Shown piece after piece: positions 38,794 to 51,028 of a stretch of 64,000 nucleotides of DNA. Within the stretch, counting starts at the first letter, position 1. Every line of letters starts with the position of its first letter. The stretch is from the NCBI GenBank assembly GCA_903914955.1, contig CAIWRB010000205.1, forward strand, positions 6,208-70,207, in the 5' to 3' direction. Source of the DNA: an uncultured Chloroflexota bacterium (GTDB taxonomy: Bacteria > Chloroflexota > Anaerolineae > Anaerolineales > Villigracilaceae). The translations under genes and the position numbers were made by a program. The notes under the pieces were generated by a model. It was not told the DNA's origin. It ran no database searches and saw only the letters and a list, made by a program, of their open reading frames with translations.

Positions 38794-40080
38794 ATGACAA
38801 ATTCGCGCATCTCTGGATTTTACAATCTGACTATCGAAGAACGCCGCGTCAAACTTGCGGAAGCCGCGGGTCAGACTCCCGAAAGCCTGCTCCCGTTTAC
38901 TACAGGCGGTCTCTCTGCTGAATCAGCCGACCACATGATCGAAAATGTGATCGGCATGTTTGCGCTCCCAGTCGGCATCGGACTGAACTTCATGGTCAAC
39001 GGCCGCGATGTGTTGATTCCCTTTGTAGTGGAAGAACCATCAGTTGTAGCTGGCGCATCCTTTATGGCAAAACTGGCACGCGCAGGCGGCGGATTTATAG
39101 CCACCACAACCGAGCCTTTGATGATCGGACAAATGCAGTTGATCAACGTGGTCAACATGAATGAAGCGCGGCTGAAAATATATGAGCACAAAGCCGAGCT
39201 GCTCGCTGTTGCAGATTCCATTGACCCGATCCTGAAGAAATTTGGCGGCGGCGCACGCGATTTGGAAGTGCGTATGATCGAAGAATCGGCCATCGGCCCG
39301 TTCATCGTCATTCATCTTATTTATGACGTGCGCGACGCGATGGGCGCGAACGCGGTCAACACAGCCTGTGAAAAACTTGCACCACAAATTGAAACCATCA
39401 CAGGCGGAAAAGTCCATTTGAAAATATTATCAAATCTCGCAGATAGAAGAATTGCGCGCGTACGCGCCACCATCCCTGTCAGCGAGCTGACCGTTGGATT
39501 TGAATCCTTCAAAGGTGAAACCGTGCGCGATGGAATCATCGCCGCTTATGCTTTCGCCGCATCCGATCCCTATCGCGCCGCCACCCACAATAAGGGAATC
39601 ATGAACGGCGTGGACTCGGTCGTCATCGCCACGGGCAACGACTGGCGCGCCATCGAAGCGGGCGCACACGCTTACGCCGCTCGCAATGGACAATACACAG
39701 CATTATCCACTTGGGGCAAGGATAAAGATGGTAACCTGGTTGGCACACTCGAAATGCCGATGGCAGTGGGCATCGTCGGCGGCGCGACCAAAGTCCATCC
39801 CGCCGCGCAAGCCGCAGTGAAGCTCATGGGCGTGAAGACCGCATCCGAATTGGCTGAGATCATCGTCTCTGTTGGACTTGCTCAAAACATGGCCGCCCTG
39901 CGCGCGCTCGCCACCGAAGGCATTCAACGCGGACACATGTCCCTGCACGCAAGGCAGGTCGCCATCGCTGCTGGCGCATCTGGCGAGTTGATCGAAAAGG
40001 TGGCCGCGCAAATGGTAGCGGAGAAGGTTGTGCGCGTGGATCGTGCGGAAGAAATTTTGAGTGGAATGAAAAACAATTAA
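38794..40080 (+). CDS. mvaA: Class II HMG-CoA reductase
   Basis: ENVIG, EEPSVVA, DAMGAN, THNKG, EGIQRGHMSLH. Confidence 0.95.
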   Translation: MTNSRISGFYNLTIEERRVKLAEAAGQTPESLLPFTTGGLSAESADHMIENVIGMFALPVGIGLNFMVNGRDVLIPFVVEEPSVVAGASFMAKLARAGGGFIATTTEPLMIGQMQLINVVNMNEARLKIYEHKAELLAVADSIDPILKKFGGGARDLEVRMIEESAIGPFIVIHLIYDVRDAMGANAVNTACEKLAPQIETITGGKVHLKILSNLADRRIARVRATIPVSELTVGFESFKGETVRDGIIAAYAFAASDPYRAATHNKGIMNGVDSVVIATGNDWRAIEAGAHAYAARNGQYTALSTWGKDKDGNLVGTLEMPMAVGIVGGATKVHPAAQAAVKLMGVKTASELAEIIVSVGLAQNMAALRALATEGIQRGHMSLHARQVAIAAGASGELIEKVAAQMVAEKVVRVDRAEEILSGMKNN

Positions 40081-40117: not shown

Positions 40118-40813
40118 TTGAAAAAAGTTCTCGGCTGTATCTTTATCATAACTGTATTCATCTTATCCGCTTGCAGCTTGTCCGGGCAAACTGCTTCTTC
40201 TGAAGTTGTACCAACGATCACTGCGACTCAAACTCAACCCGCCGCAACATTTACCCCGATCCCAACATTCACTGCAATTCCAACCATCACCCCGATTCCT
40301 GGAACCATCGTTCTTGATTTCGCTGCGCAATTGTGCAATGCGAAATGGATGAATGGCGTACAAAAATTGGCATCCTGCCCGGATGCCAACGCTGACCATT
40401 CGGCTGGTTATGCCATAGTGATTGACCCGGCCTCTGAAGGCTTGCCCGCAGGCACACCCATCCTTCTAACCATCCCGGCCTTGAATTCATACTCAGCTTT
40501 ATTCCTCCGCTATCCAGCGTTGACCATTCAAGCCGGGGATCATTTCCGCGCCACACTCCAATGTCAATCTGCTTCCACAAATTGTGATGTCAGCTTTGGG
40601 CTGGATTATTATGACTCCGACGGAAAATATCACAGCCCCCTAGCAATGTGGGATCAAAACAGTGGAATGGCTCCCGCCGCTGTGGATTATGATTTAACAG
40701 CATTGGTCGGTCAAAACGTGGACATTGTTCTAGCTCTGCGTCCCAACAATGACACGCCACAATTCGATACCGGCTTGTGGATCGCGCCGCAGATTTTCCA
40801 CTTGAATCCGTAA
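40118..40813 (+). CDS. Lipoprotein with Thr/Pro linker
   Basis: TTG start after AGGAG, LSAC lipobox, PTFT-type repeats. Confidence 0.8.
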   Translation: MKKVLGCIFIITVFILSACSLSGQTASSEVVPTITATQTQPAATFTPIPTFTAIPTITPIPGTIVLDFAAQLCNAKWMNGVQKLASCPDANADHSAGYAIVIDPASEGLPAGTPILLTIPALNSYSALFLRYPALTIQAGDHFRATLQCQSASTNCDVSFGLDYYDSDGKYHSPLAMWDQNSGMAPAAVDYDLTALVGQNVDIVLALRPNNDTPQFDTGLWIAPQIFHLNP

Positions 40814-40846
40814 GTTGAATAACAACGAAGGAAGAAACACTGCCTG

Positions 40847-41353
40847 ATGGAAAACATCCTTGGCACTATCCTATCTACGATCACATTCCTGGTTGTGGTC
40901 GCCACCGGCCTATGGTTTGGTTATTTTGCCGTACTTATCACGTTCGAACAGATACAAGCTTGGCGACTGGCACGTCAAAGCGTTGACTGGGCCAGCACGT
41001 CAGGTATCATCCAGACCAGCGAGATCATCTATGAAGGTATTCGTAGACCCAGAGAACAACCGAAGATCACCTACACCTATCAAGTCAGCGGGATCAAATA
41101 CGAAGGCAACCGCATCAATTTCTCATTCGCTCAAACTTTTTCCAAAGAAGAAGCCGAAGATGTTCTCGCTACATACCCGCCCAACGCCATGATCACCGTT
41201 TATTACGACCCGTCCCAACCCGCTCAAAGCACTCTCGAGCAGCGCCACACCGGTCTGGCCAGCGGACTCGCGGTTGGTCTGATAATTTTCCTGCCTACCT
41301 GCCTCTGCCTTGCCACTGGATTCGCTGGCCTGACTGGTAAAGTGGGAAGATAA
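40847..41353 (+). CDS. DUF3592-like membrane protein
   Basis: TM helix, W.ST.G.I..S, YTYQVSG..YEG, VYYDPSQP, C-terminal TM helix. Confidence 0.75.
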   Translation: MENILGTILSTITFLVVVATGLWFGYFAVLITFEQIQAWRLARQSVDWASTSGIIQTSEIIYEGIRRPREQPKITYTYQVSGIKYEGNRINFSFAQTFSKEEAEDVLATYPPNAMITVYYDPSQPAQSTLEQRHTGLASGLAVGLIIFLPTCLCLATGFAGLTGKVGR

Positions 41354-41453
41354 AAAATCACAAGTTTATTCCTATACAGAAAGCCTTCCACACCGTGCAG
41401 ACAGGATTGACGTCAACGTTTTGTATGTGTAATACTTACAAGAGGATTTAACT

Positions 41454-41952
41454 TTGAGCAAAATAAGTTTTCTAACTAACGAGAGTATCTCGCAAACAAT
41501 GACAAGAATCATTAAAGAATCAAGTCATGTAAATGCAGGTATTGCCTATTTTGGAACAAATGGAGCAAAGTATTTTCCACTTAAGAAAAACAATTATTTA
41601 GTAATCGACATGAGCATAGGCAAAGTAAAATTAGGCTCGACTAATCCATTTGAAATCGAAAAACTGCTCAACAAAGGTGTGACTGTATTTAGTAGACGAA
41701 GTCTCCACGCCAAATTCCTAATTACGAACAAATCCTTACTTGTAGGCTCTGCTAATATTTCTAAAACCGCACGAGAAATACAACATGAAGCAGCAATTTA
41801 TTGTGAAGATAAACTCTCTATTGAAAAAGCAAAATATTTTTTTAACAAAAAAGAAAAATCCACCTACAATGGCTGTCCTAGACCCTTTACCTGCAGATGA
41901 ATTATTACGATTATGGATTCCTAAAGGTCGAATAGCAAGGAAAACTAAATGA
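41454..41952 (+). pseudogene. Phospholipase D-family (HKD nuclease-like) gene, apparently frameshifted or truncated, AT-rich
   Basis: LHAKFLITNKSLLVGSANIS motif; the main frame stops at 41900 while the +1 frame stays open to TGA 41950-41952, which overlaps the next ATG. Confidence 0.65.
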
Positions 41953-43028
41953 CAACTCCACAACTAAATTCCCCCACCCTACTCAAACCCATCAAGCCTG
42001 TCGGCATTATCGGCTACGGCGCGTACGTGCCGCGATATCGTCTGCCCGCGAAAGAAGTCGCGCGCGTATGGACAGGCAAGACCAGCGGATTTCCCATCAA
42101 AGAGAAAGCCGTGCCCGGCCTCGATGAAGATGTGATCACCATGTCCATCGAAGCGGCGCGCAACGCCATGCTCCGGGCTCAAATTGACCCGACAGAACTG
42201 CGGGCGGTTTGGGTCGGGTCAGAGTCGCATCCGTATGCGGTCAAACCAACTTCCACCGTAGTCGCCGAAGCGATTGGCGCAGTCCCCAACACACAAGGCG
42301 CGGATTTTGAATTCGCGTGTAAAGCTGGCACCGAAGCGGTAGTCGCCGCCATGGGATTGGTCGGCTCAGGCATGGGACATTACGCGATGGCAATCGGTAT
42401 GGATACCGCGCAAGGTAAGCCCGGCGACGCGCTCGAATACACTGCGGGCGCGGGCGGCGGCGCGTACATCATCGGTCCCGCCGAAGAGTCGCTGGCGATC
42501 ATCAACGCCTCGTATTCCTACGTCACCGACACGCCCGATTTCTGGCGGCGTGAATATCAAAAATATCCCGAGCACGGCATGCGCTTCACTGGAGAGCCCG
42601 CCTACTTCAAACATATCACCGAAGCCGCTACACATCTCATGGAAGCCAGCGGCACGACCGCCAAAGATTACAAGTGGGCGGTCTTCCATCAGCCGAACAC
42701 AAAATTCCCACAGCGTGTCGCAGGTCAACTCGGATTTTCTGCGGAACAAATCGCACCCGGGCTTTTGGTTCATACTATTGGAAATACTTATGCAGGCGCA
42801 GCCATGATCGGCTTGACAGCGACTCTCGACATCGCCCAGCCCGGCGACAGAATCCTCGTTATCTCTTTCGGCTCTGGAGCTGGCTCAGACGCCTTCGACA
42901 TAGTTGTCACTGACAAAGTCACTGCCCGCCAGGGTCTCGCGATGAAGACACAAGAATATATTGCAAGACGCACAGAAATCGATTACGCCACTTATGTAAG
43001 GTATCGCGGCAAATTGGCAATGAAGTAA
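41949..43028 (+). CDS. Hydroxymethylglutaryl-CoA synthase, archaeal type
   Basis: [20 protein letters not shown] catalytic Cys, [27 protein letters not shown]. Confidence 0.92.
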
Positions 43029-43044
43029 AAGGGTGATGATTTCG

Positions 43045-43437
43045 ATGAGACGAAACATCCCTTCTGTATTCATCTTTGCGCTGGGGATATCAGCCTGTAA
43101 CGCCATAACTCCTACGCCGACACCTGTCATATTTGCAGATAGTTTTTTCTCAGGCTATGCTTTTTTAGATACAAACGGAAACGAAGAACTCGACTCTACG
43201 GATACGCCCTTGAAGGACGCAATATTTATTGTTCAACTTGAAGGTGATTTACAGTTTGGCGGGTTGACCGATGAAACGGGGAATGCGTTTGTGACCATTC
43301 CTTCTGCTGTTCAATACCCCGTCACCCTGTTTATGAAACCGCCCGAAGATAACGGTATAACATTACTTGGTCCATCCATTATTTTTCTGCAAGAACCAGC
43401 AAGCGAAAAAAACAACTTCCTCTTTACATCAAAGTAA
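43045..43437 (+). CDS. Small lipoprotein with SdrD B-like domain
   Basis: ISAC lipobox-like site; GYAFLDTNGNEELD; TDETGNA. Confidence 0.7.
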   Translation: MRRNIPSVFIFALGISACNAITPTPTPVIFADSFFSGYAFLDTNGNEELDSTDTPLKDAIFIVQLEGDLQFGGLTDETGNAFVTIPSAVQYPVTLFMKPPEDNGITLLGPSIIFLQEPASEKNNFLFTSK

Positions 43438-43450
43438 CAAAAGGTGAATC

Positions 43451-44428
43451 ATGGCATTCTTCGATCTCTCCCTCTCTGAATTAAAAACCTACCGCCCCGC
43501 GCGCGAAGAACCCGCGGACTTTGACTCATTCTGGAAATCCACATTGGAAGAAGCGCGGACATTCCCGCTCAACACAACCTTTGAAAAAGTTGATTATGGT
43601 CTCACCGCGCAGGAAACCTTCGATGTAACTTTCTCAGGCTTTGGCGGACAACCTATCAAAGGCTGGTTGATTCTGCCCGCCAAGGCGCAACGCACAGGGA
43701 AATTACCCTGCATCGTTGAATACATCGGCTACGGCGGCGGACGAAGTTTCGCATTCGAGTGGCTCTTATGGGCAAGCGCAGGCTATGCTCACTTCGTGAT
43801 GGATACGCGCGGACAAGGCAGCAGTTGGTCGCCTGGAGACACACCTGATCTGTATGCCGAAGGCGGCAATCCACACATCCCAGGCAGTATGACCAACGGT
43901 GTCTTGGATCCCAATCATTATTATTACCGCCGAGTCTTCACTGATGCAATCCGCGCGATAGATGCAGCACACAGCCACCCCGAGGTGGATGCCTCACGCA
44001 TCGCTGTGACTGGCGGATCGCAAGGTGGAGGAATCACCATCGCTGCTGCTGGACTCGTCCCCGATGTTGTTGCAGCCATGCCCGACGTGCCGTTTCTCTG
44101 TCATTACCGTCGCGCCACCGAGTTGGTGGATACTTATCCATATAAAGAGATCGCAGATTATTGTCACATCCACCGCGATAAAGTGGATACAGTTTTCAAC
44201 ACACTCTCTTATTTTGATGGAGTCAACTTCGCAACGCGTGCGAAAGCAAAAACATTATTCTCCACTGGCTTAATGGATCAAGTCTGCCCGCCTTCGACAG
44301 TTTTTGCGGCCTACAATAATTGGGCTGGCGAAAAAGACATTAAAGTGTATCCATACAACGGTCACGAAGGCGGCGGGAGTTATCAGACGATGGAGAAAGT
44401 AAAATTTTTGAAGAATATTTGGAAATAA
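43451..44428 (+). CDS. Acetylxylan esterase / cephalosporin-C deacetylase (CE7)
   Basis: [39 protein letters not shown]. Confidence 0.92.
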
Positions 44429-44585: not shown

Positions 44586-45746
44586 ATGACAGAAGTAGTT
44601 ATCGCAGGTATCGGACAAACACAAGTCGGCGAACACTGGGAGATCAGTTTACGCGATCTCGCTCTCAACGCCATTCAAGCCGCGCACAAAGATTCAGGCG
44701 GACTAAAACCGCAGGCATTATTTGTCGGCAATATGCTCGCGCCAAATCTTTCCAATCAGGCGCATCTCGGTGCACTCATCGCAGATTATGCCGGGCTGAC
44801 CGGCATCGAAGCCATCACTGTTGAAGCCGCTGGCGCATCGGGCGGAGCGGCTCTGCGTCAGGCGTATCTCGCCATCGCAAGCGGCATGGTGGACGTGGCA
44901 CTCGTGGTCGGCGTTGAAAAATTCACAGACAAAATCGGTTCGGAGGTTGAAGAAGCCATCGCCTCAACAAGCGATTCTGATTTTGAGGCTGTACAAGGTC
45001 TGACTGCCACCGCGCAAGCCGCGTTGTTGATGAAGCGTTACATGTACGAAAATGAAGTCACAGCAAATGGGTTTGCCAATTTTGCATTAACGGCTCACGC
45101 GAATGGTGTTGCAAATAAAAATGCGATGTTCCGCAAAGCAATTAAATCTGAGACGTATGCCAAAGCAGAAATGGTCAGCGACCAGCTCAATATGTTCGAC
45201 GTGGCCCCCATTGCGGATGGCACCGCCGCGCTCGTTCTGACTCGCCGTGACCTGCTCCCGTCCGATTATCAGAATCAGCTCGTGAAGATTGCTGGCTCAG
45301 CGGCCTCATCGGATACTTTGGCATTGCACGATAGAAAAGATATGTTGTATTTTGACACCGCGCAAATTTCAGCGGGTAAAGCCATGAAGCAAGCGGGAAT
45401 CATTCTGGATCAAATCAACTTCTTTGAATATCACGACGCATTCAGTATTTACGCCGCGCTAAGTTTGGAAGCGGTTGGGTTTGCAATTAAAGGTTGCGGT
45501 TGGAAACTTGCAGAAAATCATGAGATAAGTTTGAAGGGAAAAATCCCATGCGCCACCATGGGCGGCATGAAAGCGCGCGGATTCCCCGGAGGCGCTGCGG
45601 GCGTATATCAAGCCGTCGAAGCAGTCACACAGCTTCGAGGTCAGGCGGGAGCAAATCAAATTGCCAATGCAAAGTATGGACTCATCCAGTCTCTTGGCGG
45701 GCCAGCATCCACGGCAGTCAGTCATATCCTGCAAAGATTGGATTGA
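44586..45746 (+). CDS. Thiolase-domain protein (archaeal/SCP2-like) with degenerate active site
   Basis: Thiolase fold motifs present, but EAAGASG (no Cys) and GFP (no His); HDAF retained. Confidence 0.88.
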   Translation: MTEVVIAGIGQTQVGEHWEISLRDLALNAIQAAHKDSGGLKPQALFVGNMLAPNLSNQAHLGALIADYAGLTGIEAITVEAAGASGGAALRQAYLAIASGMVDVALVVGVEKFTDKIGSEVEEAIASTSDSDFEAVQGLTATAQAALLMKRYMYENEVTANGFANFALTAHANGVANKNAMFRKAIKSETYAKAEMVSDQLNMFDVAPIADGTAALVLTRRDLLPSDYQNQLVKIAGSAASSDTLALHDRKDMLYFDTAQISAGKAMKQAGIILDQINFFEYHDAFSIYAALSLEAVGFAIKGCGWKLAENHEISLKGKIPCATMGGMKARGFPGGAAGVYQAVEAVTQLRGQAGANQIANAKYGLIQSLGGPASTAVSHILQRLD

Positions 45747-45758
45747 GAAGACAAAAGT

Positions 45759-47819
45759 CTATCGCCCACCGTCTATATTCTTGAGATCGACATCCAAAGA
45801 ATTAATTTGTAAAATATCCCCGCTCAACTTCACTGAGTCAGATTCAAAACCAAAGAATGTCCAAAAGACTGCTTGGGATTGTTCTGTTTCCAGCATCGCG
45901 GAAAGAGCGGGTTCTTTGTGACCGTAATATCGCGAGCGCCAGCCGCGCGTGCTCTTTGGGTCTGCGCGGACAATAGAGATGCGCGCAGACCCAGCCAGTA
46001 ATCCCATTTGAATTTTATATTTATGTAATACAGGCCATAAGCAAATTGTGTTATCTTTTTGTGTGTATGGAAAATCGTTTAACAGCCAGTGAAGCGCATA
46101 ATGATGATGATGATGATGAGACTGCGCGCCACTGAGGTGGTCAAGGATAAGCCAGCGGTCATCATCAAGCATGAGGACAGTGCGTTTATGTGTGACTGGG
46201 CTATATCCATTATGTTCACCCTGCCAAAGTTTTTCACTTTGTTGAAGGACTTTTCCCTGCGCCCAATCCACCCATGTGAAGCGGCTGATCATTTTCATTT
46301 GATCTTTGGAATCTACCGTGATAGTATTATGCGCAGATGTATGTGCCAGTCCGTTTCGCCAAAGATCTTCGCCACTGTATAAATAAGTACCTGCATCACA
46401 AGCGATATTAATTCCGCGCCACCAAAGATCAACATGAAGTTGATCGGCGTGAGATGGGCGTTCTTGAAAATCTGTACAACGGATGATCGCCTTGCTGTTT
46501 GTGTTGTGTAAGATGTAGACTCCGCCGTTTGGAAAATTTGTTTTGTCTTGAATTTCCCTCTCCCTGAGAGAGTATGAGCTTTCGCCGCACAACCAAAATA
46601 GATCTTCATCCCACATACCTGACTTAAACAGAAGTTTGCCTTTTGTAATAAACGAACCCAACTGTATAACGGGACGGTAATCGGTGAAGTCGCATGAGTT
46701 TAGTGGAAGCACCAACGCGCCATCATTTGAGCCATAGACCGGCATTTGACCTGTCTGCGGATCGATCAATTGATACAAATAATCAACCGAGGAGGAGATT
46801 GATTGATAAAGAGATTCGGAAAAACGTGATCCATTCAATTCGCCTAATCTTATGGCATATAAATATACTTGAAGAACGAAGCGATGGTAATTAAGCGAGT
46901 ACATTGAATAACTGCCGTCGGGAAAAATCTGCTGAGCCGCCTCCCGTTCGAGAGACATGCACCCAAACGATAAATATTTTTCAGAGTCCTTCAATTCAGG
47001 AAAAAGTAATCCCGTCATCCACAGCCCGAGCGCTTCACTGATGGAATGATTTCCACGCGTGAAGATTGCGAAATCCGTATTGCTGTAGATCCGTTGCGCG
47101 TGAGACGCAATGACTATTGTTAAATCCGCAACATGTTGAGGCGTGGTGACGGGAGATTCCAAAAAAGTGTACAGGCCAAAAATCAATGCCATGAGACGCA
47201 ATGCTGCCTCCTGACCGTCCATCCAATTTGGTCCTGCGTTAGGAGGATTTGATTCAGTCCAGGATTGAGTCAATTGCCAGAATGCCTTTGCATATCTTTC
47301 ATCTTGATTAATTGCGTATGCGCGCGCCAGCGTATATACAAAACTAAATCGGCTGGCTTCCCAAATGAATTTGATATCCACTTCACCTTCATCAGAAAGT
47401 TGTGACCAATGTTTGTTTGAATCTAGATTGACACCAGTGACGGGATCTTTATGCCAATCTGGAGGAAATCCAATTTTCTGGAATTCGTGTGTAAAGTATT
47501 TCAACTCGCCTGATAAAATCCGTTCGGCTTCATCCACTGCGAGTTGCGGATTCCAGGGAACGTTATCAGGCAATTGATTTATATGTTCAAAAAAGAATTT
47601 TGGGGAATTTTTTTTGCGCCAAGTTCCGTAATCAACAGGCTGGGATGGGACTTTTTCTTTCAGCCATGTTTTCAGCGGACGGTCTGCCCATTGGTAAAGC
47701 GGCATTTGCAAGCGAACAAGTCCCGTGCGGATGCGAAATGCATAAGCGAAACGAAATGCCAACCAACGCAGACCAAGTTGACGGTAGAGCGAAGCGAGTG
47801 TTCGGAACTTAATCCACAT
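45759..47819 (-). CDS. Heparinase II/III family protein
   Basis: IKFIWEASRF, GNHSISEA, EMSLNYH-like MYSLNYHRF, GSNDG, HADQLHVDL, DAGTYLY, AHNTITVD. Confidence 0.88.
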   Translation of the reverse strand: MWIKFRTLASLYRQLGLRWLAFRFAYAFRIRTGLVRLQMPLYQWADRPLKTWLKEKVPSQPVDYGTWRKKNSPKFFFEHINQLPDNVPWNPQLAVDEAERILSGELKYFTHEFQKIGFPPDWHKDPVTGVNLDSNKHWSQLSDEGEVDIKFIWEASRFSFVYTLARAYAINQDERYAKAFWQLTQSWTESNPPNAGPNWMDGQEAALRLMALIFGLYTFLESPVTTPQHVADLTIVIASHAQRIYSNTDFAIFTRGNHSISEALGLWMTGLLFPELKDSEKYLSFGCMSLEREAAQQIFPDGSYSMYSLNYHRFVLQVYLYAIRLGELNGSRFSESLYQSISSSVDYLYQLIDPQTGQMPVYGSNDGALVLPLNSCDFTDYRPVIQLGSFITKGKLLFKSGMWDEDLFWLCGESSYSLREREIQDKTNFPNGGVYILHNTNSKAIIRCTDFQERPSHADQLHVDLWWRGINIACDAGTYLYSGEDLWRNGLAHTSAHNTITVDSKDQMKMISRFTWVDWAQGKVLQQSEKLWQGEHNGYSPVTHKRTVLMLDDDRWLILDHLSGAQSHHHHHHYALHWLLNDFPYTQKDNTICLWPVLHKYKIQMGLLAGSARISIVRADPKSTRGWRSRYYGHKEPALSAMLETEQSQAVFWTFFGFESDSVKLSGDILQINSLDVDLKNIDGGR
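46101..46118 (-). repeat. (CAT)6 trinucleotide repeat encoding His6
   Basis: atg x6 on the + strand, read as HHHHHH in the heparinase-family ORF. Confidence 0.95.
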
Positions 47820-48819
47820 TTTTTAATCGGGAAGCGTGACAGGACAAGAGAATCCAAATAAGCGGTAATCCCAAAAAAATAATCGGCGCAGCGAATTGAT
47901 GTCCGCGTGCCCATTGGTACGAAAGAATTCCACCGAAAAGAGTTAATAAAATATACAGAAAACTAACTGTTGAATGTTTATAACCGCCAATGACCAGGCG
48001 TTGAAATAAATGTGAACGATGCGCGGAAAAAACTTTTTCGCCATTACGCAAGCGATTGATAAAGGTCAAGCCAGCATCCATGATGAAAGTCCACATCAGA
48101 AGCGTGCCGAGCATCAACGCGTCCCCGCCCTTGTCAGCGGAAAGAAGTGAGAGAACCGCAAAACTATAGCCGAGAAATGTACTGGCAACATCGCCCATGA
48201 ATATTTTTGCGGGCGACCAGTTGTGAAAGAGAAAGCCCAAACTGCCAGCAGAGATCGCGAGGGCAATCCAGAACGCAAATGAATTACCACTTGCGGAAGA
48301 AAGCCACATCCAGCCCAGCCCCGCGCTGACGGCAACGCCGCCCGCCATGCCGTCAATGCCGTCCATAAAATTATAGGCATTGGTTAAACCGATGATCCAA
48401 AAAAACGTGATCACCACTCCGACAATCCCAAGTTGAAGTTCTCCAAACAAGGGTATTGTGACTGACTTGAAATATCCCATACTGATAATGGAAACGACTG
48501 CGACAATTCCTTGCACTGCAAAGCGCGTGATGGGAGAAAGTGACTTGACATCATCCTGCCAGCCCAACAATGCAATGACGATTCCGCAGACGACATAAAC
48601 CAAACTATGAGTCAACCCGGTTTGCGTGGCAGATAATAAACCTGCTCCCAGAACAATGACTACAATTGCCAATCCGCCGCCGCGAGGAATGGGAGTCGAA
48701 TGCATACTGCGGTCGCTTGGATGGTCGAGCAACTGATCTTTCGCCCCCCAGCGCCGAATTAATATGACTCCGCCATAAGAAAGTAATATCAGAAGAATAT
48801 ATATTGCAATTTGCGTCAT
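47809..48819 (-). CDS. Polyprenyl-phosphate sugar-1-phosphate transferase (MraY/WecA family)
   Basis: RSMHSTPIPRGGG, GWQDD, NAYNFMDGIDG, FMGD, HRSHLFQ. Confidence 0.9.
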   Translation of the reverse strand: MTQIAIYILLILLSYGGVILIRRWGAKDQLLDHPSDRSMHSTPIPRGGGLAIVVIVLGAGLLSATQTGLTHSLVYVVCGIVIALLGWQDDVKSLSPITRFAVQGIVAVVSIISMGYFKSVTIPLFGELQLGIVGVVITFFWIIGLTNAYNFMDGIDGMAGGVAVSAGLGWMWLSSASGNSFAFWIALAISAGSLGFLFHNWSPAKIFMGDVASTFLGYSFAVLSLLSADKGGDALMLGTLLMWTFIMDAGLTFINRLRNGEKVFSAHRSHLFQRLVIGGYKHSTVSFLYILLTLFGGILSYQWARGHQFAAPIIFLGLPLIWILLSCHASRLKNVD

Positions 48820-50036
48820 ACCTTCACCAAATTCTCAAGCAACTTCAATGTATCATTTAATTTATCACGGCGGTCAAGCTCCTTGACAAGATATGCCCGC
48901 GCATTTAATCCCATTTGTTTTACTCGCTGCGGATTATTTGAAAGTTCGAGGATAATTTTCGCCAGCTGTTCCTCGTTGCCTGGTGAAACGAACACTCCCC
49001 CGCCGGAAGATTCGATCACCTCACGAACGACGCCATCGATAACCAATACAGTTCCACGCGCGGCGGCCATGTAATCAAAAACCTTATTTGGATAGGTTGT
49101 GCGAAACATGGGAACATCCTGCAGGATCGCGAGGCATACATCCGAAGAAGCAATCACAAGCGGCATTTCCTTTTTGGGGCAAACGCCCGCAAAGATAACA
49201 TTCGTCAATTTCATCCGCTTCGATTCCGATTCGAGTCGCGCGCGTTCCTTGCCGTCGCCAAAAAGCACAAAGCAGATCTGCGGCTCATGATTCAATCTTT
49301 CCGCCGCGCGCAGGATGGTATCGATGTCGTTGGCTTGTCCCAACGCGCCTGCGTAAAGTACAACAAATTTATTTTCCAATCCCAATTTCTTACGGACAGG
49401 AGAGCCGTCGACATCGGGATTGAACATATCCACATCGGTGCCGTAGGGAATGTATGTGATCTTATTTTCAGGCACGCCTTTTCCGAGCATATATTCCTTA
49501 TACGCAGGCGAGTTGACGAGAATGTGCGTGGCACGCGCGTACAAGAAATTTTCAAGCCAGCGCGCGAGCGAAATCACGATCGGATTTTTCAAGACGCCCA
49601 TGCTCACGCCGAATTCAGGCCAAAGGTCGCGCACTTCCAATAAGAATGGTTTGCGCCGAATCAACGCAACGAACCAGGCAGATACTGCCTGAAAGATCGG
49701 CGGTGTCGTGCCCATGACAATGTCAACATTTTTTACTGTAAACGCGGTCCACACCGAAGTGAACATGAAACTAAGAAATGAAATGATGCGCCAAAAATAA
49801 CTGCGATGCAGCACGGGGAAAATATACGCGCGTAGGATCCGCACACCATCAATCATCTGCTCCGCAAAAAGCCCAGTCCGCTCCACCGTGCGTTGTCCCG
49901 TTTGATAATTTAAATCGCTGGCGACAATTACCAGCTCATGTTCACGGGCGCTCAAATATTGCGCCATTTCAAAATGACGTGTATGCCCCGGCTCGTCTGG
50001 CGAGACAAAGGCCTGATTGATCAACAAAATTTTCAT
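48816..50036 (-). CDS. GT4 glycosyltransferase (WbuB-like)
   Basis: EVRDLWPE, YAGALGQA, PNKVFDYMAA. Confidence 0.9.
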   Translation of the reverse strand: MKILLINQAFVSPDEPGHTRHFEMAQYLSAREHELVIVASDLNYQTGQRTVERTGLFAEQMIDGVRILRAYIFPVLHRSYFWRIISFLSFMFTSVWTAFTVKNVDIVMGTTPPIFQAVSAWFVALIRRKPFLLEVRDLWPEFGVSMGVLKNPIVISLARWLENFLYARATHILVNSPAYKEYMLGKGVPENKITYIPYGTDVDMFNPDVDGSPVRKKLGLENKFVVLYAGALGQANDIDTILRAAERLNHEPQICFVLFGDGKERARLESESKRMKLTNVIFAGVCPKKEMPLVIASSDVCLAILQDVPMFRTTYPNKVFDYMAAARGTVLVIDGVVREVIESSGGGVFVSPGNEEQLAKIILELSNNPQRVKQMGLNARAYLVKELDRRDKLNDTLKLLENLVKV

Positions 50037-50050
50037 GGACGAGATTCGAA

Positions 50051-51028
50051 TCACTCCGCGAGTTTAAGTTTCTTGAAGATCCATGGCGCGCCGCCAGCCA
50101 CCCAAAAGCCGATCAGTGTATAACGGACAAACCTCAGCAGGTAAAAGATGAAAGCATCGCCTTCCGGAAATATTTTTTTCAATCCCACATAGAGGATGAG
50201 AACTCCGATCAAGCCGATGACATAGCGAATGGCACGCTTCTGCAGTGAACCCGCAGCCTGATACCCGCCAACTGACATGATCCATGCTGCACCCACCGCC
50301 AACCCGAAGAGAATCCCCGCCGAGGTGAAGGTGCTGGTCGAGTCAATGGGATTAGGCGCGTCTGCCTTCGCGAGAGCAGCGTTGTTCATCCAATCTTCAG
50401 GGACTTGATAATCGCTTCTTAAAGTTGTCGCGCCAAATCCTAATACAATGAAAATCATTGAAACGATGAACGCGATCATGATTTGCTGGCTTAATGTTTT
50501 CGGTGCGATCCATACCGCAACTGGCTCCCAAAAACGAGTGACAATCCATAATAATATTGCGCCGATCAGCCAGCCAAAGACCACGTCGTGCGGGAAATGC
50601 GCAGCAAGAAATATGCGTGAAAAACCGATCAGGAACATGATCGCAATCGTTGTCACCCACAACCAGTTTCGTTTGTAATAAGCAGCGATCGTCCCCCAGA
50701 CAGAGACTGCGATTTGCGCGTGTCCTGATGGAATGCCAAATGAGGTTTCTGAAGTCCACAACGCGCGCACATGAGAGCTTGCCCAATAGGGGCGCGGTCC
50801 GGCAAAAGCCAATTTGAAAATATTGTTGAACAGATTACTCATTACAAGAATTATCCCGACCCGCAAACCTAGAGCAGAATCTACGCTCCAGTAGATGAGC
50901 GGCAATGCAAGCAAAAAGAATTCCTCATTGCCGAGGAAACTAAAGAATTTCATGGGGGCGATCAGCCAATCGCCCGCGCCTTGAAGGGTATAAATAAGGG
51001 CAATACCGAAATCGATCAGGGTTTGCAT
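50051..51028 (-). CDS. PAP2 family phosphatase (membrane)
   Basis: KLAFAGPRP, PSGH, SRIFLAAHFPHD; AGGAGG RBS before MQTL. Confidence 0.9.
   Translation of the reverse strand: MQTLIDFGIALIYTLQGAGDWLIAPMKFFSFLGNEEFFLLALPLIYWSVDSALGLRVGIILVMSNLFNNIFKLAFAGPRPYWASSHVRALWTSETSFGIPSGHAQIAVSVWGTIAAYYKRNWLWVTTIAIMFLIGFSRIFLAAHFPHDVVFGWLIGAILLWIVTRFWEPVAVWIAPKTLSQQIMIAFIVSMIFIVLGFGATTLRSDYQVPEDWMNNAALAKADAPNPIDSTSTFTSAGILFGLAVGAAWIMSVGGYQAAGSLQKRAIRYVIGLIGVLILYVGLKKIFPEGDAFIFYLLRFVRYTLIGFWVAGGAPWIFKKLKLAE

Follow-up and report, generated by a model that had tools for sequence, protein, structure and literature searches.

Archaeal thiolase works in a channelling complex with HMG-CoA synthase (HMGS) and a DUF35 protein. 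Thiolases are obligate dimers, and the Cys nucleophile is essential to their chemistry. Type II polyketide synthases contain a thiolase-superfamily paralogue that has no active-site Cys and is the obligate partner of a catalytic subunit; this chain-length factor (KS-beta) belongs to the ketosynthase family, pairs with KS-alpha and serves another pathway, and it offers only an analogy to the case described below. Structures 6ESQ and 6ET9 are those of the thiolase/HMG-CoA synthase/DUF35 complex of Methanothermococcus thermolithotrophicus (Vogeli et al. 2018). According to the passages of PMC12960953 that cite Vogeli 2018, subunits of the archaeal complex expressed singly give insoluble ACAT (the thiolase) and inactive HMGS, and HMGS and ACAT share a fused CoA site at their interface. 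HMG-CoA is no longer formed when the HDxF His of the archaeal ACAT unit is mutated (H284A), and thiolysis by Pseudomonas fluorescens ACAT is nearly abolished by the corresponding substitution H294Y (PMC12960953).

The tripartite architecture of the archaeal complex is also the source of that in PhlACB of Pseudomonas, MucABC of Streptococcus, and the ACAT/HMGS-DUF35 “intermediate” of P. fluorescens (Liao et al. 2026, PMC12960953). The Friedel-Crafts acyltransferase subunit of the first two systems, PhlC or MucB, keeps the Cys and the GHx motif and has lost HDxF, and its HMGS-like partner is devoid of the E-C-H-N tetrad (PMC12960953). Proteins of the SCP2-thiolase fold that bind DUF35 and have no nucleophilic Cys (it is Gly in Sal) are represented by the steroid side-chain aldolases Ltp2 and Sal (6OK1 and 9MYR), in which a Tyr conserved within YDHF/YDCY is catalytic and is joined by a second Tyr or Cys, namely Tyr344 or Cys304 (PMC12329534). 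We found no published description in the literature of a thiolase devoid of its catalytic residues in an HMGS/DUF35 setting, and the only related remark that we found is that the catalytic motif is missing from many archaeal AACT homologues, whose function is unknown (PMC6107057).

Such a protein is encoded in the 64,000-nucleotide stretch of DNA from an uncultured Chloroflexota bacterium that was analysed here (“the window”). Its features are as follows.

38794..40080, + strand: class II HMG-CoA reductase, HMGR (Pfam HMG-CoA_red, 377 bits; TIGR00532, 432 bits), opening the ancestral HMGR-HMGS-X-DUF35 operon
41949..43028, + strand: archaeal-type short HMG-CoA synthase, 359 aa, presumed partner (PRK04262, 545 bits; TIGR00748, 532 bits)
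43033-43437, + strand: 134-aa protein with no family match, between HMGS and the thiolase paralogue
43451-44428, + strand: AXE1/CE7 acetyl-xylan esterase (Pfam AXE1, 406 bits), between HMGS and the thiolase paralogue
44586..45746, + strand: Cys-less archaeal/SCP2-type thiolase paralogue, 386 aa (Pfam Thiolase_N and Thiolase_C_1)
44832..44834, + strand: Gly83 codon GGC, in VEAAGASG, where thiolases have their Cys nucleophile
45432..45434, + strand: His283 codon CAC, in FEYHDAF, where the HDxF motif is still present
45582..45584, + strand: Phe333 codon TTC, in KARGFPGG, where GHx has its catalytic His

An earlier note on this DNA had described the gene at 44586-45746 as a full-length, intact frame with EAAGASG instead of EAACASG, GFP instead of GHP, and HDAF as the only motif left. 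This description is borne out by the translation, which is free of stops over its 386 aa and has GFP encoded by GGA TTC CCC (45579-45587), and by alignments with 7YVY of P. furiosus, 6ESQ chain A of M. thermolithotrophicus and the organism's own C/H/H paralogue (named for Cys and the HDxF and GHx His residues), in which Gly83 aligns with the EAACASG Cys and Phe333 with the His of GHP/GHA. His283 of HDxF is thus the sole catalytic residue left. The protein has the five-layer thiolase fold, of about 385 aa, by Pfam, AF2 and Foldseek: its AF2 model (pLDDT 93) matches 6ESQ chain A with a TM score of 0.95, an rmsd of 1.5 Å and no indels, and 7YVY with TM scores of 0.90-0.95. It belongs to the same family as the thiolase of the archaeal complex (219 bits). 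Unlike that ACAT, it carries Gly83 and Phe333 and scores below the NCBIfam subfamily and equivalog cut-offs, with 387.4 bits against PRK06064 (cut-off, 420) and 332 bits against AcCoTHIOL_METTL/NF053570 (cut-off, 600); PRK06064 scores are 451.5 for the organism's own C/H/H paralogue and 490.7 for one C/H/H copy from an operon. Hence, of the features of archaeal-type ACAT, the protein labelled in databases as acetyl-CoA acetyltransferase retains the HDxF His and lacks the Cys nucleophile, the GHx His and a score above the family cut-off. Without that Cys and that His, it should not be able to run the thiolase half-reaction that is channelled by the archaeal complex.

The partners expected from the archaeal complex are present in the genome. 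The HMGS of the window matches 6ESQ chain I with 435 bits and has an intact E-C-H-N tetrad (GSES, FACKAG, FHQPN and GNTY). It lies upstream of the Cys-less gene on the same strand, across a gap of 1.56 kb that contains two unrelated ORFs (43033..44428). In 75 related loci the median gap is 52 nt, and gaps of 1.1-1.7 kb occur only in the genus-level group of the query. Among 80 species-level loci, HMGS is immediately upstream of the Cys-less gene in 75 and DUF35 is downstream in 50. Most often, the genes of relatives run HMGR-HMGS-X-DUF35, X being the Cys-less thiolase, and this order also occurs in Herpetosiphon, Chloroflexales and family f22. The gene position of ACAT between HMGS and DUF35 is matched in relatives. 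The module is looser in the query genome, with HMGS 1.56 kb away and DUF35 on another contig, whereas the three genes are adjacent in relatives. As the earlier note had observed, neither an active thiolase nor a DUF35 gene is visible in the window. The search of the whole assembly that it proposed finds one of each: the sole other Thiolase_C_1 match, on contig C48 of the query genome (G000), is a C/H/H protein of 383 aa that is 46% identical to the Cys-less paralogue and scores above the PRK06064 cut-off, and the sole DUF35 match, on contig C359, gives 119 bits to the scaffold chain E of 6ESQ. In the solved archaeal complex, close orthologues of both the HMGS and the DUF35 protein of the query genome serve as subunits. 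The genome also encodes at least three bacterial thiolases II, all on contigs other than that of the window.

The missing catalytic residues, and nothing else, would speak for a decaying pseudogene, a strain-specific lesion or a sequencing error. This explanation is refuted by an intact frame, a dN/dS of 0.05-0.11, the same substitutions in 120 independent orthologue clusters and a clade spread over three orders, which leave it a negligible probability. The earlier note had supposed that the gene is under selection, which the dN/dS values bear out as strong purifying selection, and had suggested checking G and F in orthologues, naming close orthologues with Cys/His as what would count against its reading. 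None was seen. Position 83 is Cys in 0 of 120 close orthologue clusters, 0 of 80 species-level Anaerolineales loci and 0 of 115 Chloroflexales cluster representatives; Gly83 and Phe333 are unvarying across the 120 clusters, which were drawn from many samples, and the same substitutions are present in every orthologue examined. They are neither chance nor sequencing error nor a lesion. Within a set of 81 sequences of 55-100% identity, 68 of the 386 positions are at least 97% conserved.

All Chloroflexota Cys-less copies form a single old clade of 38 rows (SH-aLRT 97), with members from Anaerolineales, Herpetosiphon, Chloroflexales and family f22 that span three orders. The same operon slot is occupied by a C/H/H thiolase in 20 of 20 other Anaerolineae families. 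Among the 105 full-length representatives of 50% clusters that lie nearest to the query, a sample skewed to the query's own clade, 58 have no Cys, and the tree needs at least 7 changes. An extension of the pattern to archaea was dropped given this skew and the fact that the sole non-Chloroflexota case followed, P0152 (D/H/H), proved to be isolated, a lone sequence on a short contig amid C/H/H archaeal relatives. An HMGS tree was also built to ask whether the HMGS genes from operons with Cys-less copies descended as a single module; it is an unresolved polytomy, in which co-diversification with the Cys-less or C/H/H state is not visible.

Judging from sequence and gene order, the protein is probably a catalytically dead descendant of archaeal-type acetoacetyl-CoA thiolase that has kept its place and lost its chemistry. 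Its likeliest role is that of a non-catalytic partner of HMGS, not of the first enzyme of isoprenoid synthesis. Among the suggestions of the earlier note, the non-catalytic subunit of a thiolase/HMGS complex has the best support, from the C/H/H thiolase and the DUF35 gene elsewhere in the genome, the conservation of G83 and F333, the low dN/dS and the place between HMGS and DUF35 in relatives, and we favor with moderate confidence a subunit that holds the thiolase place in an HMGS/DUF35 complex. Such a subunit would still dimerize and bind HMGS and DUF35. It would complete, from the thiolase side, the fused CoA-binding chamber on which the short archaeal-type HMGS would rely, and it would carry out no Claisen condensation. 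The looser module of the query genome, the strong conservation of the former active-site loops and the HMGS tree without visible co-diversification weigh against this reading. Acetoacetyl-CoA would then come from other enzymes: in the query genome, from the C/H/H paralogue of contig C48, perhaps itself part of the assembly, and/or from the three or more thiolases II, and in genomes that have only the Cys-less copy, from thiolase II. All 19 genomes with a Cys-less copy in the operon encode thiolase II, versus 17 of 23 with a C/H/H copy there, a weak association (one-sided Fisher test, ~0.02) in a test that ignores kinship.

Since thiolases are dimers, the Cys-less protein might instead form an obligate heterodimer with the C/H/H paralogue, in the manner of KS-CLF, so that every dimer in the complex would combine an active protomer with a structural or regulatory one. 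Both paralogues are indeed present in the query genome and in nearly all genomes of its family, and the tandem HMGS-dead-DUF35-live of G031 (Cys-less and C/H/H copies, respectively), together with HMGS-DUF35-live in G025, where the C/H/H copy belongs to the same clade, suggests an ancestral operon with both. However, the Cys-less copy is the only one in the near-complete genomes G028, G030, G036 and G040 and in Herpetosiphon and Chloroflexales, the second copy in G037 is T/H/H, and in most Anaerolineales the C/H/H copy is unlinked, with neither DUF35 nor HMGS adjoining. With so many near-complete genomes that have only the Cys-less copy plus bacterial thiolase II, a universal heterodimer is rejected as the general mechanism. 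Pairing with the C/H/H paralogue is not the reason why the clade persists, although the query genome may still use it. Overall, we regard the obligate heterodimer as improbable.

The pattern of conservation bears on whether the protein has acquired a new function as an enzyme with Cys-independent CoA-thioester chemistry (an aldolase/lyase, decarboxylase or direct condensation), like Ltp2/Sal or TbSLP. Nucleophile-less proteins of the thiolase fold can be enzymes, as exemplified by the DUF35-bound aldolases Ltp2 and Sal (PMC12329534). The former active-site loops EAAxASG, ExxDxF and GGxKARGxxGGA stay strongly conserved, the polar residues E281, D284, H248, D249, R250 and K329 are invariant in the Cys-less copies, and Tyr283 of some orthologues resembles the YDxF aldolase motif; the conserved loops could equally signal a ligand pocket or some chemistry still in use. 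Out of 19 sites that are near-invariant in 82 C/H/H thiolases, among which the GHx His is invariant, 15 are still invariant in 105 Cys-less ones, and the only sites released are the catalytic 83, 283 and 333 and the neighbouring 328. Across the Cys-less clade, position 83 is G/D/E/A/Q, position 283 is H/Y/C/S/T/F/A/D/W (S/T/C in Chloroflexales and Herpetosiphon, with His kept throughout the query's genus) and position 333 is F/N/D/H/Y/E. These positions thus offer no conserved candidate catalytic residue among same-operon orthologues, and the dominant residue at 83, Gly, has no side chain; the aldolase-defining Tyr of YDHF/YDCY is missing, with HDAF in its place, and the operon points to the ordinary HMG-CoA pathway, where an extra reaction is unneeded. 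The different chemistry that the earlier note had offered as its alternative is weakened by the free variation of these positions among orthologues and survives as an unlikely explanation.

The Ltp2/Sal aldolases share the absence of the Cys and are distant (62 bits, 21-23% identity); membership among them is rejected, as their defining Tyr motif is absent here and variable in orthologues. A KSQ-like decarboxylase is rejected as well, with Gln83 found in only two sequences (P0123 and G036) and the required His pair unconserved. PhlC and MucB show low similarity (57-58 bits), and identity with this subunit is ruled out by the combination of a Cys-less protein that has HDxF and a partner HMGS with an intact tetrad. 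The likeness to PhlACB and MucABC lies in the tripartite architecture derived from the archaeal complex and in one thiolase-fold subunit that is stripped of catalytic residues and, at the Chloroflexota locus probably, retained as a structural partner. The roles are reversed: there, the HMGS-like subunit is dead, having lost E-C-H-N, and the ACAT-like subunit keeps its Cys, whereas here the HMGS has its tetrad and the ACAT-like subunit is the predicted dead one. It is doubtful, in our estimate, that the Cys-less subunit takes an active, non-covalent part in the reaction, with its conserved former active-site tunnel receiving acetoacetyl-CoA made elsewhere and passing the pantetheine arm to HMGS, or with Cys-independent acid-base chemistry of its own; if it were active in that way, the archaeal “channelling” complex would have been turned into a different kind of machine.

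In Chloroflexota, pathway reconstructions assign the first step of the mevalonate pathway to the Cys-less thiolase, and the affected labels include those in cultured Herpetosiphon, Oscillochloris, Chloroflexus and Leptolinea. Cultured carriers include Leptolinea tardivitalis YMTK-2 (WP_062421775), Herpetosiphon aurantiacus (ABX06504) and Oscillochloris trichoides DG-6. A dead protein would mean that this step has been mis-assigned in three orders and that the true source of acetoacetyl-CoA is a dispersed C/H/H paralogue or a bacterial thiolase II. As a mirror image of PhlACB/MucABC, the locus would be relevant to the engineering of such complexes. It would also represent a natural experiment on the thiolase/HMGS/DUF35 complex, in which evolution removed the chemistry and kept the thiolase protein, and this retention points to a structural dependence of the short archaeal-type HMGS on its thiolase partner.

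The earlier note had described a thiolase-like gene of the mevalonate cluster as lacking both the Cys nucleophile and the His of the GHx motif, and this description is exact. The gene (X in the operon formulas below) and its codons at catalytic positions 83, 283 (HDxF), and 333 (GHx), which read C/H/H in live thiolases, are as follows:

44586-45746, forward strand: the Cys-less ("dead") thiolase, an open frame of 386 aa
44832-44834, forward strand: GGC codon of Gly83, in ...TVEAAGASGGA...
45432-45434, forward strand: CAC codon of His283, in ...FFEYHDAFS...
45582-45584, forward strand: TTC codon of Phe333, in ...MKARGFPGGAAG...

The protein combines the Pfam domains Thiolase_N and Thiolase_C_1, and its best NCBIfam models are archaeal/SCP2-type thiolases. 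It scores 387 bits against PRK06064 (cut-off, 420 bits) and 332 bits against the Methanothermococcus thermolithotrophicus acetyl-CoA acetyltransferase equivalog (cut-off, 600 bits). Residue-by-residue alignments to the Pyrococcus furiosus thiolase (7YVY), the thiolase chain A of the M. thermolithotrophicus thiolase/HMG-CoA synthase (HMGS)/DUF35 complex (6ESQ), and the genome's own second thiolase all align Gly83 with the Cys of EAACASG and Phe333 with the His of GHP/GHA. The archaeal complex is the closest known system, and the dead thiolase is homologous to its thiolase, from which it differs in three defining respects: it has neither the Cys nor the GHx His, and it scores below the family cut-off. 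Judged by its sequence, it should not be filed as an acetoacetyl-CoA thiolase.

A search of 5.8 billion proteins yielded 120 clusters of orthologues (83 to 100% identity) from Anaerolineales and Chloroflexota MAGs. G83, H283, and F333 are present in 120 of 120, so the G and F singled out in the earlier note are indeed conserved. Together with dN/dS values of 0.05 to 0.11 (against 12 orthologues) and the open frame, this refutes a pseudogene or a sequencing error. Between this genome (G000) and the same-genus G009, identity is 81% for the dead thiolase, 87% for its live paralogue, 82% for HMG-CoA reductase (HMGR), and 92% for HMGS. Among 81 Anaerolineales sequences, the residues at the catalytic positions are distributed as follows:

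Position 83: G 71, D 8, E 1, A 1; never C
Position 283: H 50, Y 11, C 8, S 4, F 3, A 3, D 1, W 1
Position 333: F 38, N 33, H 4, Y 3, D 2, E 1

Despite this variation, 68 of the 386 positions are at least 97% conserved in the same set. In a comparison of 105 dead sequences with 82 live ones from Chloroflexota and archaea, the dead set keeps invariant 15 of the 19 sites that hardly vary in the live set, among them E281, D284, G326, G327, G332, G336, and G339. Only four (83, 283, 333, and the adjacent 328) are freed; constraint is likewise relaxed at M113 and F141, two residues that live thiolases conserve. An AlphaFold2 model made from 41 sequences (pLDDT 93, pTM 0.93) overlays 6ESQ chain A without indels (TM 0.95, 1.5 Å). 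With the catalytic sites varied and the other near-invariant sites and the fold kept, constraint has therefore been lifted from catalysis and not from architecture, which remains constrained, old active-site loops included. The conserved pocket loops might also indicate that the protein performs new chemistry, but this is disfavored because the old catalytic positions hold no residue conserved among orthologues; moreover, position 83 is mostly Gly, and the defining Tyr motif of the Ltp2/Sal aldolases is absent.

Gene order was surveyed in 80 species-representative loci of named genomes with 55 to 96% identity to the dead thiolase, the nearest with a species name being "Candidatus Villigracilis proximus" (88%); the cultured Leptolinea tardivitalis shows 62%. 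HMGS lies directly upstream of X in 75 loci (median gap, 52 nt) and DUF35 lies downstream in 50 (median gap, 123 nt), the most frequent order being HMGR-HMGS-X-DUF35. The module is looser in the window, whose relevant features are listed here:

40118-41900: three small unrelated ORFs between HMGR and HMGS
41949-43028: HMGS, 435 bits to 6ESQ chain I, E-C-H-N catalytic motifs intact
43033-44428: two ORFs between HMGS and the dead thiolase, one of 134 aa without a family match and an AXE1/CE7 acetyl-xylan esterase (406 bits)
45759-47819, reverse strand: heparinase II/III-like protein of 686 aa (Hepar_II_III_N and C)
47809-48819, reverse strand: Glycos_transf_4 (WecA/MraY-like) gene
48816-50054, reverse strand: GT4 glycosyltransferase

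In the window and its nearest relatives, DUF35 is displaced from the module, and some 1.1 to 1.7 kb of unrelated genes separate HMGS from X; these insertions are confined to the closest relatives, the gap elsewhere being about 50 nt. Thus, the upper mevalonate operon of the genus is broken at both junctions. Of the three ORFs between HMGR and HMGS, one encodes a DUF3592 membrane protein (55 bits) and another a PLD-like fragment of 148 aa (33 bits). The remaining one, of 231 aa and without a Pfam match, begins with a hydrophobic segment containing Cys and a run rich in Thr and Pro, which by eye makes it appear lipoprotein-like. The three reverse-strand genes suggest a polysaccharide locus; the heparinase-like protein has an internal six-His run, SHHHHHHY.

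The whole assembly (470 contigs, 98.7% complete) was searched for a second C/H/H thiolase and a DUF35 gene, as the earlier note had proposed, and both were found. The only further archaeal-type thiolase, on contig C48 (383 aa; EAACASG, LHDAF, and RGHPVG), is 46% identical to the dead one and passes PRK06064 at 451 bits. The single DUF35 gene, on contig C359, encodes a zinc ribbon (CxxC...CxxC) and an OB fold within 136 aa and scores 119 bits against the DUF35 scaffold of 6ESQ (chain E). The live gene (locus L001:1540-2766) is followed by genes for a PilZ-domain protein and a PlsC-type acyltransferase, with no HMGS or DUF35 nearby, and is equally isolated in G009, G033, and G038.

Nearly every genome of the order carries the dead copy, and most carry the dispersed live copy too. 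In other orders of the class Anaerolineae, all 20 sampled families have a single C/H/H thiolase, located within HMGR-HMGS-Thl-DUF35. Outside this class, the operon thiolase is Cys-less again in Herpetosiphon (G/S/D; H. aurantiacus ABX06504), in Chloroflexales (G/S or T/D in 115 cluster representatives; carriers include Oscillochloris trichoides DG-6, "Ca. Chloroploca," "Ca. Viridilinea," and Chloroflexus sp.), and in family f22. In an IQ-TREE analysis of 90 sequences, all Chloroflexota dead copies form one clade (38 rows, SH-aLRT 97); live-operon copies (23 rows) and the dispersed live copies of Anaerolineales (9 rows, SH-aLRT 99) form clades of their own. This is a conserved, single-origin pseudo-thiolase of three orders of Chloroflexota; the pattern is most simply read as a single ancient loss of the Cys, followed by decay of the two His residues that differed between lineages. 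The one archaeal-like Cys-less representative traced is an isolated sequence, and the conclusions drawn here concern Chloroflexota. A third type of archaeal-type paralogue, with Thr or Ser replacing the Cys and both His kept (T/H/H, S/H/H), forms its own well-supported clade (representatives P0144 and P0185); it occurs in G037 (contig C1:5254112-5255239; locus L047:8104-9240), with similar matches (43 to 45%) in G026, G027, G029, G033, and G034.

A KS-CLF-like pairing of the dead thiolase with its live paralogue is possible in G000, which has both, as does G031, where they are encoded in tandem (HMGS-dead-DUF35-live; contig C177, locus L034). However, the dead copy is the only archaeal-type thiolase in G028, G030, G036, G040, and G021, as well as in Herpetosiphon and Chloroflexales, and the second copy of G037 is T/H/H. 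Because dead-only genomes exist, such a heteromer cannot be what maintains the clade. In G025, which has neither a dead copy nor a bacterial thiolase II, the order is HMGR-HMGS-DUF35-live (contig C203, locus L043), and its live copy falls in the same clade as that of G031. These two genomes resemble alternative states of an operon in which ancestral Anaerolineales had both copies, a hint that makes mixed dead/live assemblies possible in G000.

With matches to Pfam Thiolase_C counted from 135 bits upward, bacterial thiolase II was detected in 19 of 19 dead-operon genomes tested, including G000 (contigs C340, C414, and C204), and in 17 of the 23 genomes with a live operon; the operon thiolase is live in all six genomes without it (G025, G151, G242, G203, G253, and G314). 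This distribution supports another source of acetoacetyl-CoA in dead-operon genomes, but weakly, since the association (one-sided Fisher test, ~0.02) is uncorrected for phylogeny.

Liao et al. (2026, PMC12960953), who cite Vogeli et al. (2018), describe the archaeal complex as dodecameric: DUF35 links HMGS to the acetoacetyl-CoA thiolase (ACAT), and the CoA site is fused where HMGS and ACAT meet. When expressed alone, ACAT is insoluble and HMGS is inactive. A fused site and subunits that fail alone would explain the loss of the thiolase chemistry but not of the thiolase protein: a lineage obtaining acetoacetyl-CoA elsewhere could drop the former and not the latter. The dead thiolase would then bind HMGS and DUF35 and contribute the CoA chamber while having no activity of its own. 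The reading as a non-catalytic structural subunit, one of the two offered in the earlier note, is supported by the conserved residues, the low dN/dS, and the HMGS-X-DUF35 order in relatives. With moderate confidence, we take the protein to be a non-catalytic subunit of an HMGS/DUF35 complex that has a structural role and helps to form the CoA chamber. PhlACB, MucABC, and the Pseudomonas fluorescens complex are the mirror image: in them the HMGS-like unit is dead and the ACAT-like unit is live. Hoshino and Gaucher (2018, PMC6107057) noted only that the catalytic motif is missing from many archaeal homologues of acetoacetyl-CoA thiolase, of unknown function, and literature searches on thiolase pseudoenzymes and on DUF35, Chloroflexi, and mevalonate yielded no description of such a case. 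What has been annotated as acetyl-CoA acetyltransferase in three orders of Chloroflexota is a pseudo-thiolase, and its assembly would be a variant of a known complex.
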